32,000 bases of DNA from an uncultured Hyphobacterium sp. Its GTDB lineage: Bacteria > Bacteroidota > Bacteroidia > Cytophagales > CCMP332. The notes under the pieces were generated by a model. It saw only the letters and a list, made by a program, of their open reading frames with translations, was not told where the DNA came from and made no database searches. The stretch's first letter is position 1, and each line of letters begins with the position of its first letter. The DNA lies in the NCBI GenBank assembly GCA_964351965.1, contig CAYGPM010000012.1, forward strand, positions 46,827 through 78,826, written 5' to 3'. Positions 1-28,002 of this stretch are shown piece by piece. A program made the translations under genes and the position numbers.

Positions 1-1532
1 ATAAAAAAAATAAAGCAGAGAAAAACGTGCCCTCTCATCAGGTGCTGTTAAAAGTTATCGGTGGCGCATCAGCTGGAGGAATGACAGGCATCATCGCCAG
101 CACCATGGTTAATGAAATTTTTGATCCAATAAAACATGTGGATCAAAAGGATCTTTTTGCCCAACAGCCCGGTAACAAACTTTATCATTCTTGGGTAGAC
201 CAGTTGCAAAAAGATATGTTTCCTATGCTTTTAGATAATTCGGACATCTCTTCCCAAAATATTCCATCCCTGTTAAATTCCGGATTTATCGATAAAATAG
301 CAGATCGTGCCATTCAGGTAAAGGAAGCTTCTCAAACCTCACGAAACTATATAGATGAGAATCTTAAATTTTTTACGACCCTTACTAATCTTAACGGCCT
401 GAAATATTCTGCCACGCAGCAAGGAAACCTTCAATCCAATGATTATTACTTAAGTCAGCATAATGATTATGCCTGTTTTCAGCTTCAATCTAAAAAGGTC
501 AAAACAAATGATTCAACCTTTCCTACAGAAACAAATAGAGGTTGGATACCTGTTGACTACTTAAACGGATTGAATGTAAAGGCAGTTAAAGAAAGTGCTA
601 TGGCCACAGGAGCCTTTCCTGTTGGTCTAAAATCACGATATGTTAGCCGGCCTGCAGATTATGTGAATAAACTAGAATGGCATGAAGCAATAACCGAACA
701 TTTTCCTGTTCCAGGTCCCAATTATTCTACATTGAATGTAGATGGCGGAACAATAAATAATGAACCATTTGAACGTGTTAAATCACTACTAGATGGAATC
801 AATGAAAATGAGGAGAAGTTTAGTGCTGCTTCCATCATGATTGATCCGTTTCCAAGTGCTGAGCAAGCAGATAAAATGATAAAGGATGATATTACAAGTA
901 GTATAGGCGCAACACTTTCAGCCATGCTCGGTCATTTGCGTTCAAAACCTGAAATCTTGGATCAAATGTATTCCAAAGCTTATGCCGGGCAGTTCCAAAT
1001 TGCGCCACGTCGTTCGATTAATCAAAAAGACGTTGAAGGCTCAAAAGCCATTGCTTGCGGCTTTTTAGGAGGTTTTGGGGGCTTTTTAGATAAAGAGTTC
1101 CGTATCCATGATTTCTTTCTAGGAAGAGCAAATTGTGAGTGGTTTTTACGTCATCATTTTACCGTGCCTGCAGACACCAAAAATCCCATTTTTAAAGATG
1201 GCTATGAAGGTGTAAATCTGGAAAATTATAAATCTTCTAAAAACGGCAGGTTGCCAATCATTCCACTATTTACCAAAGCCGCTAACCAGATGTACATGCC
1301 GACGTTTGCTTCCGGAAATAATTGGCCAAGCAAGAAAGAAAAAGAAATCACCCGGTTTAAACCAAAGATTAAGCATAGGGTTGGCAAGATCATCATGAAT
1401 ATAAGCAAGTATAGCTGGAGCCAGCGCATTCTAATTGGTATTGGCAACAGAATTATCTTGCGAAAGAAAATTTCAAATACAATTATGGATTCTATACTTA
1501 AGTCGATGAGCAGCCATAACCTATTACGATGA
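1..1532 (+). CDS. patatin-like phospholipase (5' end probably outside window)
   Basis: GGASAGG (GxSxG nucleophile elbow) lies near the N-terminus and VDGGTINNEP matches the catalytic DG[GA] motif. The frame stays open from nt 3 to the listed GTG at 27, so the oxyanion-hole region is probably upstream of the window. Confidence 0.75.
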   Translation, partial: KKNKAEKNVPSHQVLLKVIGGASAGGMTGIIASTMVNEIFDPIKHVDQKDLFAQQPGNKLYHSWVDQLQKDMFPMLLDNSDISSQNIPSLLNSGFIDKIADRAIQVKEASQTSRNYIDENLKFFTTLTNLNGLKYSATQQGNLQSNDYYLSQHNDYACFQLQSKKVKTNDSTFPTETNRGWIPVDYLNGLNVKAVKESAMATGAFPVGLKSRYVSRPADYVNKLEWHEAITEHFPVPGPNYSTLNVDGGTINNEPFERVKSLLDGINENEEKFSAASIMIDPFPSAEQADKMIKDDITSSIGATLSAMLGHLRSKPEILDQMYSKAYAGQFQIAPRRSINQKDVEGSKAIACGFLGGFGGFLDKEFRIHDFFLGRANCEWFLRHHFTVPADTKNPIFKDGYEGVNLENYKSSKNGRLPIIPLFTKAANQMYMPTFASGNNWPSKKEKEITRFKPKIKHRVGKIIMNISKYSWSQRILIGIGNRIILRKKISNTIMDSILKSMSSHNLLR

Positions 1533-7958: not shown

Positions 7959-8426
7959 TTATTGTTTGAACCGGGCATCAAATTTCAACGGCACTTTTGA
8001 AATGATTTTAATATGTGCAGCATCGGGGTGGTTGGGATTAATAAGATAATTGAATTCCTGAGGAATGATACAGCTTGGCACTTTCAATACCGCTGCAGAT
8101 TTGTCTTTTACAAAATCATCACCGATAAACTGGGTTTCAAGAATAGGGGGTTTTGAATCCCAGTGGTCCGGTAAGTCTTCCAATTCTAATTCAAGAATTT
8201 CAAGATCATCCGGAATGTCAATCTCAACATAATATCGATCACTTGGCAGATCTTCACTTATATCCAAGTGAACCGACACTTCCAAGGTAGCCAGAGCACG
8301 GGATTCAGCGCAGTACACCATGTGGGTGTTCAGGCTATTCCAGCGATAGCCTTCAGTTAGCGCTGCCCCAATGCCTTTTAGGGTAACATTAAGATATTTT
8401 TTTCTTTCGACCCTAAAAACGCGCAT
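7959..8426 (-). CDS. RES-domain toxin
   Basis: GYRWNS and YCAESRALATLEV supply the Arg/Glu/Ser signature. It overlaps the upstream antitoxin gene by 1 nt. Confidence 0.85.
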   Translation of the reverse strand: MRVFRVERKKYLNVTLKGIGAALTEGYRWNSLNTHMVYCAESRALATLEVSVHLDISEDLPSDRYYVEIDIPDDLEILELELEDLPDHWDSKPPILETQFIGDDFVKDKSAAVLKVPSCIIPQEFNYLINPNHPDAAHIKIISKVPLKFDARFKQ

Positions 8427-8926
8427 TAGGCCATATTTCCATATTCTAGCCTATTGAGACTGTTTTTAACCTCTTGAATCCCGGTTACCGTATCAAATAA
8501 ACTTTCCGGTTTGACTCCACCCAAGGAGATATTGGGTTTTTTTAACCACCTATGAAATTTATCGCGTTCATTATTAAAGACTTCCACGCCAAAATCCAGT
8601 AGCTCAGTCAACAGTAACACCACCTCACTTTCTCTTCCATTGAGATGGTCTTTTTCCCTTTTCTTTTTATTATACGTAGTTTGTGGGATGCCTATTATCG
8701 AGAGAAATTGTTTGACTGGAAGATCAGTTCTTTTGCTAATCACTTCAATGGACTCATAGGGCAAGCCCTCTCTTATCAAAGCCACCCGCTCCATTTTACT
8801 GGACCAAACTGCTTCTCCTTCCGAAACAGCAATGCGCCAGCCTGGTTTGGAGTTTCTTTTTGCTCTCGCTCGTTTAATGCTTTTTTTGGCATCAAGTTTC
8901 GCTGTTTTAAGTGTTGGTTTTTTCAT
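8426..8926 (-). CDS. Xre-like antitoxin with DUF2384-type C-terminal domain
   Basis: The C-terminal FHRWLKKPNISLGGVKPESLF...GIQEVKNSLNRLEYG is typical of partners of RES toxins. Confidence 0.8.
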   Translation of the reverse strand: MKKPTLKTAKLDAKKSIKRARAKRNSKPGWRIAVSEGEAVWSSKMERVALIREGLPYESIEVISKRTDLPVKQFLSIIGIPQTTYNKKKREKDHLNGRESEVVLLLTELLDFGVEVFNNERDKFHRWLKKPNISLGGVKPESLFDTVTGIQEVKNSLNRLEYGNMA

Positions 8927-10125: not shown

Positions 10126-10887
10126 ATGGGATTACCGAGATATGCCTATGATTTGAGGGAGGAATTAGTTAAGTATTTACAAACCGGTAGAATTAAAAAA
10201 AAGGGATATTTAGTTAATGGGGCATTCAAGTTTTTTTTTCAAAACCGGACTGGATTATTAAACATCTCTCATTTTTTTGTGTGGTCATTCAGAGTTTCTG
10301 AAATCAATTATTCTCAAGATTATGCTAAACACTATTTTAATTCAACTGAAGCCTCTTTTGATTTATTATTCAATCGTTGCTTCAAACGTCTATATGAATA
10401 CGATAGTTATCGAGGCAAAGAGAAGATGAATTCAGATGACTCATTTAAAAAATACAAAGTAAACTGGTTTGTGGCCTGGTATCGAGATGAGAAAGGGAAT
10501 TTAAAAAAAGAAACGGTCAAGGGCTTTACGAGTAAATGGTTTTTGAAGAAAGCCAATCAGATAAACAAGGATAGGAGTGAAAGAGAAAAAAATGCTTTCA
10601 TGGATAGGGAGGTCTTTCAAAGATATTCTACGCGTATATACCCAAGCCGAGTATTTCCACCAAAGCTTCGAGAGTTAATTTTTAAAAGAGATAATTATAC
10701 ATGTCAAAACTGTGGTAAAAACAAAGAAAACTGTATTGAAAAGAGCTTAAGATTAGAGGCGCATCATATACAGGCATACCAAGATGGCGGAGACACATGT
10801 TATACTAATGGATTGACTTTATGCAGTGAATGTAATATTGGCATACATCATGCTAAACCATTTAAAGATTTACCAAAACGACTTTAG
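10126..10887 (+). CDS. HNH endonuclease-domain protein
   Basis: The C-terminal CQNCG...LEAHHIQAYQDGGDTCYTNGLTLCSECNIGIHH gives CxxC, HH, N, CxxC and HH. Confidence 0.75.
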   Translation: MGLPRYAYDLREELVKYLQTGRIKKKGYLVNGAFKFFFQNRTGLLNISHFFVWSFRVSEINYSQDYAKHYFNSTEASFDLLFNRCFKRLYEYDSYRGKEKMNSDDSFKKYKVNWFVAWYRDEKGNLKKETVKGFTSKWFLKKANQINKDRSEREKNAFMDREVFQRYSTRIYPSRVFPPKLRELIFKRDNYTCQNCGKNKENCIEKSLRLEAHHIQAYQDGGDTCYTNGLTLCSECNIGIHHAKPFKDLPKRL

Positions 10888-20975: not shown

Positions 20976-21054
20976 ATCTCTAAATCTTCTGAATGTTGGC
21001 CACGTAGCTGGTGAATTTGTTTGTTGTTTGCTTATTTTCTGTTTTCTTGTTTCA

Positions 21055-21119
21055 TCTGCTCAAACCTCTTAGCTACAGTGGTTGCCTCGACCGTTTTGCT
21101 TGCTTCAATGCAGAGAACC
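21055..21119. repeat. 65-nt repeat, copy A
   Basis: 52 of 65 positions are identical to 22472-22536, with no gaps. It abuts the stop codon of the 87-aa ORF. Confidence 0.8.
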
Positions 21120-22419: not shown

Positions 22420-22471
22420 CTGCTATCAATAATAGATTTAATTATAACTGATAATTGCCTTTCTTTATTCT

Positions 22472-22536
22472 TCTGCTCAAAAGCTTCAGCTACAGTGGTT
22501 GCCTCAGCAGTTTTGCTTGTCTCATTTCAGAGAGCC
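22472..22536. repeat. 65-nt repeat, copy B
   Basis: See copy A. It lies 52 nt upstream (minus strand) of the PD-(D/E)xK gene start. Confidence 0.8.
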
Positions 22537-24219: not shown

Positions 24220-24237
24220 GATTGTCTTTTTAAAATT

Positions 24238-24369
24238 GCTGCCAGCGCTCGGCTATGGCAAGTGGCAGTTTTTGAAAAACGTTTCTGTCCACCGTAACCG
24301 AACGTAATAGCAAGATAAATATTTCGTTAACACTTTCGCCCGCCATTGGCCATAGCTATTGTTGGCAGC
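24238..24369. repeat. attC-like imperfect palindrome E1
   Basis: GCTGCCAGC (24238-46), 5-nt spacer, GCTATGGC (24252-59), variable centre, GCCATAGC (24349-56), 4-nt spacer, GTTGGCAGC (24361-69). It lies 7 nt after the stop of the 698-aa gene and 18 nt before the next ATG. Confidence 0.6.
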
Positions 24370-24376
24370 TGTATTT

Positions 24377-26473
24377 TTATTCTCTTCTTTTCTTTCGTTT
24401 CTCTTTTTTTTGCTCCAGTTTCTCAATCATTCTATGATATTCATTTATAGGATAACCCTTTACGAGTTTGAAGTTTTTGTCAAATAATGGGTCAATGATT
24501 GGCACCATATCGTCACCAAAGATCATTCTCATGTAGTTGTCAAAGTCTTTATCACTTTTTATGATTTTTAATTCCACCTCATTTAATTCAATACCAAACT
24601 GAGCCCAGTTGTTAAGTAAGTCTTTGAATTGTAATGGGTCTGAAACTATTGGTACGACATTACCGAGATTAACTATTGTTTCAGTGTCTTTATCACGTAC
24701 AAGGCATAATGGAGCGTAATAAAATATATCTAAGTCAAAAACTTTGGCAATAAGTTTACTGTACTTAGTGATTTCAGCGGATTTTATTTCGAGAATTACC
24801 TCATCAGTCTTTTTAATCTTTAATAACTCTGAATAAGAAGCAGTAATTTTACTTATGGACAACACACACATTGGGTCATTCATTTCAACATGTCTTTTCT
24901 GTGTCTCCTTAAATAATTCTAGGTACTCCTCTGCTTGAAGCTTATTTACTCTTTCAATCTTACTTCTTTCATAAGCATATGATGTGGAGCCATCCTCAAG
25001 ATTAAATTTTATACAATAACTGTAGTCGTTGTCATACTCCTCCTTCGAATTCCATGATATGACAGGCGTCCTCCCATGAAAGAGTTGTGGTTTTGCTTTT
25101 AACGAATTCAACATCCCTTGGCCTTTCATGAGTAGGGTAATCCACAATTTAAAATCAAAGGATTTCAAAAAGCTCTCTATTTCTTTTCTGGGAATTTGAA
25201 CTGTTCCTAGTATCCGGTCAATTGACCTTAAACAGGTCTTATGAACATTTCCAATGGCGGCAATTGTCTCTTTATCTTCAATTTCAACTAGTAATGCGTC
25301 TGAATCGCCAATTTGTTTCCCACAGTGAAGGCATAACTCAGGACTTTTATTACTCTTCACAAGAAATTCCAGATGTTCCTTGTGTAGCTTGGCACAAGCA
25401 GACTCTTCTATTGACTCAATCTCTCCAGCTGGGATTATTGCAATTCTTTTATCCTTGTACAAATCTTGGTATTCCTCCATGTACCTATCCAGTCCAGCCA
25501 TAGTTGCAAATCTCTGCACGACTTTCCATTCATCACCATTTCCTATCTTTATCTTACTGTTGTAGAACGTATTCTTAACTTGACAATCATCCTTGAATCT
25601 ATATAACTCGACAATCATAAAATCTAATTTGTCGAAGAATGATTCAATGAGAAGAACCTCCTTTCCTACAGAAAGTTCACCTTGAGAGATAACTTCAGTT
25701 TGCAAAAAGCTAGGGGTACGATCACTCTCCTTATCATCGTCTAAATATTTGTTGAAGATGTCAGCAACTTTCTGCTTATCTATCGAGAGCCTGCGAGAAG
25801 AATAGATTAAGGAATTCTTTATTAGAACTGCCCAAATCGTCTGAGGGCGTTTAAACCCAATGCTTTTTAAAAGCATAAATGATGCAATCTCCACGGTGTG
25901 TCCAGTTTCAGCATCTATAACTCCAATAAAAATTCTTTTTGCGAATAATTTAAATATGTCGGATGAAGGTTTTAATTTAATTGCCTCCTCATATATTTTA
26001 TTAAAAACCATCTCGAACTTCTGAAGAGTATCTTTCTCAGATTCGTTCAAAGGATTTTCGTCAAATGCATCTTCATTTAATCGAATAGATAAAACAATTT
26101 TCTTTAAATCATTAGTGATTTTGCTTGAAGCATCACTTGTAGTAATTAGACCAAAATAATGTTTCGTATTTTCGTTTTTGATGAATTCCTCAACAAACTG
26201 TTTTACTGTTTTATAAAACTCACTTGTCTCTCTGGTTGAAAGAGTCAAGCTTCTTTTTATCTGTAGAAAGACTATTTTTTCATTTCTACATAATAAGTTG
26301 ATGTCGTCAATAGCTCTACCTGTTTCAAAATATATCTTTTCAATAAGGAGTTCCTCATCTATCTGATCAAAATACGCTGAGATGTCAAATTGCGTATATT
26401 GGTTAATTAAACACCAAGCAGCAATTCGTTGTTGATAATCTATTCCGGAATTTGTTGCTTGTCCTCCTGTCAT
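24377..26473 (-). CDS. DUF4297/Cap4-like nuclease-domain protein with a large uncharacterised C-terminal region
   Basis: The start is taken at the ATG at 26473 (MTGGQATNSGIDYQQR...). GG....G.DYQ followed by FETGRAIDDINLL...VFLQIKRS (E, DD, QxK) resembles the DUF4297 PD-(D/E)xK fold. There is a CxxC...HxxC pair in the middle of the protein. Confidence 0.55.
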   Translation of the reverse strand: MTGGQATNSGIDYQQRIAAWCLINQYTQFDISAYFDQIDEELLIEKIYFETGRAIDDINLLCRNEKIVFLQIKRSLTLSTRETSEFYKTVKQFVEEFIKNENTKHYFGLITTSDASSKITNDLKKIVLSIRLNEDAFDENPLNESEKDTLQKFEMVFNKIYEEAIKLKPSSDIFKLFAKRIFIGVIDAETGHTVEIASFMLLKSIGFKRPQTIWAVLIKNSLIYSSRRLSIDKQKVADIFNKYLDDDKESDRTPSFLQTEVISQGELSVGKEVLLIESFFDKLDFMIVELYRFKDDCQVKNTFYNSKIKIGNGDEWKVVQRFATMAGLDRYMEEYQDLYKDKRIAIIPAGEIESIEESACAKLHKEHLEFLVKSNKSPELCLHCGKQIGDSDALLVEIEDKETIAAIGNVHKTCLRSIDRILGTVQIPRKEIESFLKSFDFKLWITLLMKGQGMLNSLKAKPQLFHGRTPVISWNSKEEYDNDYSYCIKFNLEDGSTSYAYERSKIERVNKLQAEEYLELFKETQKRHVEMNDPMCVLSISKITASYSELLKIKKTDEVILEIKSAEITKYSKLIAKVFDLDIFYYAPLCLVRDKDTETIVNLGNVVPIVSDPLQFKDLLNNWAQFGIELNEVELKIIKSDKDFDNYMRMIFGDDMVPIIDPLFDKNFKLVKGYPINEYHRMIEKLEQKKEKRKKRRE

Positions 26474-26491: not shown

Positions 26492-27792
26492 TAAGATACA
26501 TCCTTTACACAAGTTATAGATTAGCCTTTACACTAGATTAGTTTCTAACCTTACTGATTGTTCTTTCGTTCTTAATTCATTTTCATTAAAGTATCCTAAA
26601 AATACATTTCTATAAAACACCCGCCAAATTCCATTTCCCATCTCTAGGGCTCCTATGTATTTCCCTTGCAATGAAGCAGATACATATACCCAGTTATAGG
26701 AGCCCCATCGGACAGATCCGTTCTTGGTCACTTTTAAGACTTTCATTTCTGAGTCATAGTCAAAGTTGTTGATTCTTTCGGGAAAAGGACGCGTAGAAAA
26801 CTCATGAACAGAAGCAGGTGTTTGCATGTCCAGAGCTTCGTGGGGTCTTATGTGATTATACTCCTTTACAAATCGATTTAAACGCCTCTGTTGGGCTTTT
26901 AAATCATAAGCTGAAGGTTTGGCGCAAGCCGCCTTTAAATCTCTGTGCATTCGCTCATGTCTTCCGTTTTGTTCAGGGTGCGAAGGATCAGAATAAACAG
27001 GTATGATTCCAAGTTCAATGAACCAGTAGGAGAGCCTGGTAAAACGTTGTATGGCTTTAACAGATCCGAAAGGGCTGCCGTTGTCAGTATGGATTTGTTT
27101 AGGAATACCATACATCCTGAAAACCCTGGTAAAATCTGCTTTAGCTGAAGCCAGGTTCTCTTTGTAATGTCCTTTTGCAGTAAATACAAATCGGCTTTTT
27201 GAATCGGCAATAGTAAGTGGATGACAGTAGATTTTATTACCCATTAAAAACTTTCCTTTGTAGTCTGCACTCCAGACTTCATTGCACTGCTTCGGATCGA
27301 AAATGGGGTGAATGGGTTTGACTCTTCGCAGGCGTTTCTGAGGGCTTACCAAACCATGTTTTTTCAGGATGTTGTGTACGGTCAACATACTTGGGATCAT
27401 TTCATCTGAAAAATCGTTATACAACAGTTTGTGGATTTTTTTTGCTCCCCACAGCTTGTGTTTTTCTTTCAGTTTAAGAATGCCTTCTATCACTTTTTCA
27501 GCAGTGGTATTTGGATGAGGTCCGCGAGGTTTTCTTGAAAGTTCTCTTAGCCCTTCATAGCCTTCGTTTTCAAATCGGGTTATGATTTTATAGGCAGTAG
27601 GCCTCGATATTTCAAAACTTCTGCACAGCTCCGAGATCGTATATTGACCGGTGCGCCATTCACAGATAAACTCAATTTTTTGTTCCATTATCGTTGTTTC
27701 TTTCCAAGGCATGGCAATCTGAATTTTTCTTCAAATTGCATCTTAAAAAGTGTAAACGATGTTTCTATAACTCTGTAAAGGATGTTTGTATA
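26492..27792 (-). mobile_element. IS481-family-like insertion sequence
   Basis: Core inverted repeats are ACATCCTTTACA[CA/G]AGTTATAG at 26498-26519 and its complement at 27765-27785. The outer ends are approximate. A possible 4-bp TCGT duplication lies at 26488-91 and 27793-96. Confidence 0.7.
26528..27712 (-). CDS. DDE transposase/integrase (rve core), IS481-like
   Basis: N-terminal HTH (ISELCRSFEISRPTAYKI), plus WSADYKG, HTDNGSPF and HPEQNGRHERMHRDLK, which supply the D, D, E triad context. Confidence 0.85.
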   Translation of the reverse strand: MPWKETTIMEQKIEFICEWRTGQYTISELCRSFEISRPTAYKIITRFENEGYEGLRELSRKPRGPHPNTTAEKVIEGILKLKEKHKLWGAKKIHKLLYNDFSDEMIPSMLTVHNILKKHGLVSPQKRLRRVKPIHPIFDPKQCNEVWSADYKGKFLMGNKIYCHPLTIADSKSRFVFTAKGHYKENLASAKADFTRVFRMYGIPKQIHTDNGSPFGSVKAIQRFTRLSYWFIELGIIPVYSDPSHPEQNGRHERMHRDLKAACAKPSAYDLKAQQRRLNRFVKEYNHIRPHEALDMQTPASVHEFSTRPFPERINNFDYDSEMKVLKVTKNGSVRWGSYNWVYVSASLQGKYIGALEMGNGIWRVFYRNVFLGYFNENELRTKEQSVRLETNLV

Positions 27793-27804
27793 TCGTACCA
27801 TATT

Positions 27805-28002
27805 GCTGCCAACGTTTAGTATATGGCAAGTAGGGCAGTAGAAAGCGATAAACTTTCAGCTTTGCACTGAGCCAAAGCGTTGTATTTTGTTTTTAATTTA
27901 TTCATTTTAAAAGTCAAATCAACGATTTGGCTGTGTTGGTAAATAGTACTGAACTTTCCTAAACCATAGAACGCCCTATTTGCTATATACCGTGTTGGGG
28001 TG
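27805..28002. repeat. attC-like imperfect palindrome E2
   Basis: GCTGCCAAC (27805-13), 6-nt spacer, TATATGGCAAGTAGGGCAGT, variable centre, AACGCCCTATTTGCTATATA, 4-nt spacer, GTTGGGGTG (27994-28002). It overlaps the last codons of the NmrA-like gene. Confidence 0.6.

Follow-up and report, generated by a model that had tools for sequence, protein, structure and literature searches.

The 32,000-nucleotide stretch considered here (the window, from contig CAYGPM010000012.1 of an uncultured Hyphobacterium sp.) carries on its reverse strand a complete gene for a 698-residue protein made of two parts: an N-terminal Cap4/LmuA-type PD-(D/E)xK nuclease domain and, following a short linker, a conserved C-terminal module of 434 residues with no known fold. 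In some relatives the module carries a caspase-like protease in place of the nuclease domain, and the family has no conserved partner gene. The protein is probably (with a likelihood of roughly 0.6) a single-chain, partner-independent immune sensor-effector of the abortive-infection type, in which the C-terminal module would sense infection and oligomerisation would activate the effector.

In the proposed mechanism, the C-terminal module, a putative zinc-binding unit, would keep the protein inactive until it meets an infection cue, for which a phage protein or a nucleic-acid species are the candidates. Detection of the cue would cause the module to drive self-association, which would gather the N-terminal domains into a dimer or tetramer with nuclease activity. 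In this form the protein would degrade DNA without sequence specificity, so that the phage could no longer replicate and the host cell would probably be sacrificed.

The N-terminal nuclease domain

The AlphaFold2 (AF2) model of the protein, built on the family alignment, has a predicted local distance difference test score (pLDDT) of 83.3. The elements of the N-terminal domain run to the helix 233–244 and a disordered stretch comprising residues 245–264 comes after it. The top 16 matches of this model in the PDB, found with Foldseek (E ≤ 0.002), are chains of LmuA, HamA, Cap4 and HerA-DUF4297. The best match is LmuA (9hr5_A, E 1.2e-5; also 9nxx_D), and the others include Cap4 (6vm5, 6wan, 6vm6 and 6wam, E 2e-4 to 2e-3), the DUF4297 chain of HerA-DUF4297 (9c1m_G) and Hachiman HamA (8zue_A), all with a probability of 1.00. 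The alignments cover about 245–290 N-terminal columns, except for that of HamA, which spans 463 columns at a root-mean-square deviation of 15 Å and is not trusted beyond the nuclease core.

The motifs of the domain are G3-G4 ... G10-x-D12-Y13-Q14, E50-x5-D56-D57 and Q71-I72-K73. In an alignment of 38 family sequences with identities down to 29% (A1), the residues G10, Q14, R16, E50, D56, D57, Q71 and K73 are invariant, as is C381 of the C-terminal module. The three motifs are invariant in the family, which points to selection and not to chance resemblance. Five members of Pfam PF14130 (Cap4_nuclease/DUF4297) in the same bacterial order, all scoring above the family cut-off, were aligned as a profile (A5), and hhalign matches A1 to it over 216 columns with a probability of 72.6% and E 3.2e-5, which is moderate, not strong support. 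The match pairs GG..YQ with GG..(F/Y)Q, FET..IDD with FE.HDD and QIK with QVK, so that E50, D56 and D57 correspond to FE..HDD and Q71 and K73 to Q84-x-K86 of A5. In HerA-DUF4297, cleavage of DNA depends on the equivalent D/E/K triad (10.1101/2024.10.24.620088). Among the PADLOC models, residues 1–240 match positions 1–257 of PDC-M54A with E 1.5e-26, and there is a weak match to LmuA (E 7.8e-5).

By fold model and profile, the domain is a divergent Cap4-type PD-(D/E)xK nuclease in which the active-site signature is intact and activity is predicted; it lies outside the PF14130 threshold though it is homologous to that family. Neither Pfam nor NCBIfam gives a nuclease family for the full protein, NCBIfam returning nothing at all, and PF14130 has no match at E ≤ 1e-10 when all six frames of the window's own genome are searched. 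A word-seeded search with the N-terminal domain alone retrieves the same family only, with no new architectures.

The original prediction, made from the window's sequence, described a 698-residue open reading frame (ORF) with a DUF4297/Cap4-like nuclease pattern, a CLHCG...HKTC pair, a basic tail and about 500 C-terminal residues that match nothing. The ORF and all of these motifs are present in the translation, the nuclease assignment agrees with the structural and profile matches above, and the C-terminal part has indeed no counterpart in the PDB, BFVD, Pfam or PADLOC. Two details needed correction: the first motif is spaced GG-x5-G and not GG-x4-G, and the nuclease-type domain takes up about 245 residues where about 100 had been proposed. 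The PF14130 match by which that assignment was to be checked does not appear at E ≤ 0.1, while the proposed modelling of the C-terminal part gives a confident structure with no fold match in the PDB or BFVD.

The C-terminal module and the exchange of effectors

Modelled alone on 46 diverse sequences, the C-terminal module reaches a pLDDT of 89.2 and no segment of it falls below 50. It begins with a β-rich subdomain followed by helices and by two β-hairpins bearing the C-x2-C...H-x2-C motif; a helical segment comes next, and then a larger α/β region with a long helix at the end. The motif reads C381-L-H-C384 ... H411-K-T-C414, and the model has strands at 393–400 and 403–411. Residues C384, H411 and C414 are each conserved in at least 90% of the 38 sequences, and the residue pattern suggests that the site may bind zinc. 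Besides the Cys/His set, the invariant residues of the module include R292, R321, R420, R508, E397, D641, W444 and C487.

The module model has no Foldseek match at E ≤ 0.001 either in the PDB (best E 0.27) or among the predicted viral proteins of BFVD (best E 0.034). Pfam and PADLOC searches over the 46 diverse modules reveal no recurrent family, and sequence and profile searches of the PDB with the protein and with alignments A1 and A3 return nothing significant. The helical residues ~319–370 (window ~25364–25519) give a marginal but repeatable profile match to Hha/YmoA (E ~0.02), which is probably insignificant; Hha and YmoA are small H-NS-binding modulators. Identification of the module as a STAND or AAA sensor was rejected, as the protein contains no Walker A motif.

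A profile of the C-terminal module retrieves 359 cluster representatives at E ≤ 1e-3 and 322 at E ≤ 1e-10 among 1.84 billion proteins. The nuclease domain is present in 204 of the 237 module-bearing proteins that were fetched. In 15 of them (~7%) an N-terminal Peptidase_C14 (caspase) domain takes its place, 12 being full length (P0096, P0099, P0131, P0135, P0151, P0168, P0183, P0184, P0193, P0205, P0215 and P0224, the last at L061:10001-12112) and three truncated; the rest of the 237 are truncated as well. The effector junction coincides with the disordered linker, where relatives exchange their N-terminal domains, and the module of the caspase variants starts at an equivalent point, around residue 273. 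On a FastTree tree of the module, the caspase label requires at least two changes.

This natural swap is the strongest functional clue to the family, the module being a unit that would drive two unrelated effectors. Cap4/LmuA-type nucleases and caspases are both known immune effectors, and both are activated by induced proximity. A restriction-like role, in which the protein would be a DNA-targeting nuclease in the style of type IV or modification-dependent enzymes and its Zn/Arg-rich C-terminal module would bind the DNA to be cut, would fit the combination of a PD-(D/E)xK nuclease with a Cys/His site, the four invariant arginines of the module and the presence of restriction-modification genes near some homologs. 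However, a role purely in DNA-target recognition is hard to reconcile with the module because it also has a protease partner, which would gain nothing from such recognition, and the module matches no known DNA-binding or modification-reader fold. The restriction-like role is thus considered unlikely.

Beyond the sensor-effector reading, it is tentatively suggested that the module is an intracellular immune receptor of bacteria with a fold that defines a new family, which would work with no NTPase, second messenger or partner protein. Such a receptor might itself recognize a cue from the phage and relay the signal to exchangeable effectors that are activated by proximity, the Cap4-type nuclease or the caspase-like protease, and could be seen as a compact single-chain counterpart of the Avs/NLR-type receptors.

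One further copy had seemed to retain the nuclease and change the module. The Saprospiraceae protein at L038:10001-10810 is 52% identical over residues 1–246 and ends at about residue 260; its reading as a “sensor swap” was rejected, since the copy is truncated by the insertion of an IS3-type transposase.

Distribution, neighbours and relation to known systems

With one genome scanned per species, homologs are found at 53 loci in at least seven phyla, including Bacteroidota, Pseudomonadota, Desulfobacterota, Campylobacterota, Cyanobacteriota, Bacillota and Actinomycetota, and most of them are chromosomal. The family is real but rare, as 50,697 phage records contain no homolog and 72,556 plasmids only one full-length copy. 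Its distribution is patchy and associated with islands and mobile elements, and no paper describing it was found. The gene was not found in 60 related genomes, three of the same genus among them.

Clustering of all ORFs of at least 70 residues within 10 kb of the 53 loci shows no neighbour family in more than five of them, and the two flanking genes on each side differ at every locus. A conserved small ORF as a partner was considered and rejected, since none within 700 bp is common beyond close kin. The immediate neighbours at various loci include housekeeping genes as well as genes of Pycsar, Shosta, DRT, DrmC, AbiH, AbiE, PifA, BrxC/D and restriction-modification methyltransferases, with KAP NTPases, Schlafen/AlbA, resolvases and Cass2 also present. 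The only full-length plasmid homolog (L054), on Agrobacterium tumefaciens pAt (CP048471.1 306160-324151), lies directly upstream of a Hachiman pair (DUF1837 and a DEAD/DEAH helicase). The homolog of Pedobacter lusitanus comes after a reverse transcriptase and a SIR2-HerA pair, the latter being a separate system, another homolog comes after an integrase and a restriction-modification pair, and one caspase variant is situated among HEPN, PDDEXK_1, HTH and resolvase genes. Such a context and distribution typify an accessory conflict gene that is transferred horizontally. Toxin-antitoxin modules of the VapBC and RelE/ParE types are also present in the L054 island, as are an integrase and two TcmP genes.

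The same distribution bears on a housekeeping role as a DNA repair or recombination nuclease, to which the PD-(D/E)xK fold and the metabolic genes around some loci could point. Against it stand the absence from the 60 related genomes searched, the changing flanks and the broken copies, which comprise the IS3-interrupted L038 and three others that are each split into two ORFs (L004, L037 and L053); the exchange of the nuclease for a caspase would also be ill-suited to repair. Such a role is hardly credible.

The N-terminal nuclease is shared with several multi-gene defence systems. The original prediction had seen no HerA, SAVED, cyclase or SMC partner near the gene, and this holds both in the window and at the 53 homologous loci. 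The protein belongs to none of the systems CBASS, Lamassu, HerA-DUF4297 and PDC-M54, since the partners and domains that define them were tested for and are absent.

Lamassu LmuA of the Cap4-nuclease type (9hr5, 9nxx) is the best structural match to the N-terminal ~280 residues and has the same order of an N-terminal nuclease and a regulatory C-terminal part. It was deposited as a DNA-bound tetramer, which supports activation by proximity. Unlike in Lamassu, no LmuB (SMC-like) or LmuC gene adjoins the family at the 53 loci, and the C-terminal part found here is 434 residues long, of an unrelated fold and equipped with a Cys/His site. A search of the window's own genome for DUF3732 (LmuB) gave no match, although this negative is weak because the search was silent in control genomes too.

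CBASS Cap4, a DUF4297 nuclease with a SAVED domain, shares the nuclease fold, the layout of an N-terminal helix with G..YQ, FE..DD and QxK, and the fusion of effector and sensor in one chain. It differs in that the present protein has no PF14130 match and no SAVED or CARF domain, as seen from the structural and profile searches with the module, and there is no CD-NTase or other cyclase nearby. HerA-DUF4297 (9c1m, 8zir, 8ziq) likewise shares the nuclease fold, with a D/E/K triad that is essential in that system (10.1101/2024.10.24.620088), but its C-terminal domain is different and no HerA ATPase is adjacent here; the DUF87 matches in the window's own genome are only on other contigs (C3 and C4). 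PADLOC PDC-M54A gives the strongest sequence-profile match to the N-terminal domain, yet its model has 1657 positions, of which only the first ~257 are common, and represents a multi-gene candidate system. Neither the full length of PDC-M54A (~1650 residues) nor its partner genes are found here, and no paper naming PDC-M54 was found in the literature searched.

In being encoded by one gene, the protein resembles the Shedu-type single-protein sensor-nuclease defences, which have a DUF4263 nuclease as opposed to a Cap4-type one and show no detectable sequence or fold relation to it. In Shedu, a change of conformation or oligomeric state reportedly frees the nuclease from its inactive form, and the sensor domains vary. 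By analogy with Cap4, LmuA and Shedu, the present protein may work as a nuclease gated by a fused regulator.

These comparisons also bear on whether the protein is an orphan effector of a multi-gene system, similar to LmuA, HerA-DUF4297 or Cap4, that would depend on an SMC or HerA partner encoded at another site or on a nucleotide signal from elsewhere in the cell. The closest solved structures, the weak PADLOC match to LmuA and the DUF87/HerA-type ATPase on contig C3 of the same genome are in line with such a dependence. It is nevertheless highly unlikely, as none of the 53 loci, which represent at least seven phyla, has an SMC, HerA, cyclase or SAVED neighbour, the genome gave no match to LmuB (a weak point, the positive controls being silent as well), and a conserved 434-residue module of its own replaces the LmuA C-terminal domain or SAVED.

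Setting of the gene and meaning of the family

The features of the gene and its flanks are collected in Table 1. The ORF starts at ATG 26473 and its product begins with MTGGQATNSG; set beside ~100 homologs, it is full length. An alternative in-frame start upstream, TTG 26512, would give 711 residues (13 more) and is situated within the terminal inverted repeat of an insertion sequence (IS). In the family alignment, all homologs begin with M-x-GG-(Q/S/A)-AT-N/S-SGI, which leaves the TTG unsupported, and ATG 26473 is therefore taken as the start. At the other end, the Lys/Arg-rich tail shows no sequence conservation, and the tails of homologs vary, some being longer by 70–100 residues. Such an extension after the common C-terminal module is present in a ~770-residue subfamily (L005, L006, L007, L009-L011) and a ~795-residue one (L019-L026, L050); that of the ~770-residue variants has no sequence match in the PDB.

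Table 1. Coordinates in the window of the gene, its protein domains and the flanking elements
Feature	Position	Strand	Basis
Complete gene, 698 aa and stop codon	24377..26473	-	ORF list and translation
N-terminal Cap4/LmuA-type PD-(D/E)xK nuclease domain (by fold model and profile) with helical subdomain, aa 1-245	25739..26473	-	AF2, Foldseek, hhalign, PADLOC
Predicted catalytic core E50, D56/D57, Q71-x-K73	26255..26326	-	Invariant in alignment A1; aligned to Cap4_nuclease motifs
Low-confidence linker, aa 246-264	25682..25738	-	pLDDT <50 over aa 245-264
Conserved C-terminal module, no known fold, putative sensor/regulator, aa 265-698	24380..25681	-	AF2, Foldseek, Pfam/PADLOC, profile search
Putative zinc site C381-x2-C384 ... 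H411-x2-C414 on β-hairpins	25232..25333	-	Conservation and AF2 strands
Lys/Arg-rich C-terminal tail EQKKEKRKKRRE	24380..24415	-	Translation
attC-like imperfect hairpin directly after the stop codon, outer boxes GCTGCCAAC and GCTGGCAGC	24225..24376	-	Sequence and DNA fold
IS481-family insertion sequence	26498..27785	-	Pfam rve, rve_3, HTH_32, LZ_Tnp_IS481; terminal inverted repeats read from sequence
attC-like 3' box GTTGGCAGCAAT, parted from the gene by the IS	27802..27813	-	Pattern search

The IS481 element, with a transposase ORF at 26528-27712, has the same orientation as the gene and lies upstream of it, with 24 nt between its end and the ATG. No target-site duplication is identifiable for it. 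The gene may be silenced by the element or, alternatively, be transcribed by read-through from it.

Boxes of attC-like hairpins (GCTGCCAAC / G(C/T)TGGCAGCAAT) flank the gene on both sides. The signal of the downstream hairpin of ~150 nt is weak, its outer boxes pairing at -23 kcal/mol with z = -1.95, and the box GYTGGCRGYAAT occurs twice in the window, a number reached by 19 of 100 shuffled sequences. The box GTTGGCAGCAAT is also present directly upstream of homologs with 67–83% protein identity on three unrelated metagenome contigs (L060:36-47, L062:9962-9973 and L063:53-64), where an A-rich leader comes after it. On the contig of the closest homolog, the box runs straight into the leader and then the ATG, and there is no such IS insert. 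The shared boxes suggest that the gene may move as a cassette. Integron cassettes have been documented as carriers of defence genes (10.1101/2024.07.02.601719). The window contains no integrase; a 584-residue tyrosine recombinase is located ~6 kb upstream of the homolog on L062.

The window is plasmid-like, with a Rep3 initiator, ParA, a MobA/VirD2 relaxase and a RES-toxin/Xre-antitoxin pair (7959-8926, reverse strand). It further carries an HNH endonuclease (10126-10887, forward strand) with weak hidden Markov model matches to type II/IV restriction enzymes, a patatin-like phospholipase (27-1532, forward strand), two cargo proteins of the type IX secretion system and a CusB-type efflux component. 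A Bacteroidota host is indicated by the sorting domains of the cargo proteins and by the closest homologs, and no related plasmids were found by DNA comparison. The neighbours of the gene are the IS481 transposase and small ORFs with no known family. The defence-island and mobile-element context put forward in the original prediction stands in a refined form, as a plasmid backbone on which the adjacent DUF2971 and PDDEXK_4 genes match only the PADLOC candidate families PDC-S31 and PDC-S26; neither gene is a conserved neighbour of the family at the 53 loci. Direct repeats of 77 nt, 79% identical (21043-21119 and 22460-22536), bracket the PDDEXK_4-like gene module downstream.

Such a setting would also suit a selfish or competitive function for a mobile element, either as a plasmid or cassette addiction toxin or as a weapon against rival plasmids. 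The plasmid-type replicon with its RES/Xre pair, the attC-like hairpins at both sides of the gene and the relaxases, integrases and resolvases near homologs are consistent with this. However, the 53 loci show no antitoxin or immunity gene, large or small, that is conserved beside the family, and most homologs are chromosomal with a single full-length plasmid copy, which makes a selfish function improbable.

Several points weigh against the protein being a single-chain immune sensor-effector. The anti-phage function of the family is derived from its architecture and context, and the sensor role of the module, which has no recognizable ligand-binding or oligomerisation fold, from the architecture. 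The protein has no match to PF14130 at E ≤ 0.1 in hmmscan against Pfam-A, and its homology to that family has an hhalign probability of only 72.6%, a moderate value. The family has no homolog in the phage records and one full-length copy among the plasmids searched. Many of its neighbours are housekeeping genes, and the apparent association of the others with defence comes from individual loci. Finally, the IS481 element may have severed the present copy from its promoter.

Cap4-type nucleases recur as the executioners of bacterial immunity, as in CBASS, Lamassu, HerA-DUF4297 and some Avs/NACHT proteins, and the informative part of each such system is whatever switches the nuclease on. In this family, the effector is familiar and comes with a natural swap, and the new part is the uncharacterized putative sensor module. 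The candidate switch is thus a large, well-folded, putatively zinc-binding module that has no relative in the PDB, Pfam or PADLOC and no partner gene, and that is also found on a caspase-like protease. If the protein confers defence, it would add a new class of sensor and provide a small one-gene system of ~2.1 kb for studying the control of proximity-activated effectors. It would also illustrate how a plasmid or cassette array of Bacteroidota can serve to store defence genes.

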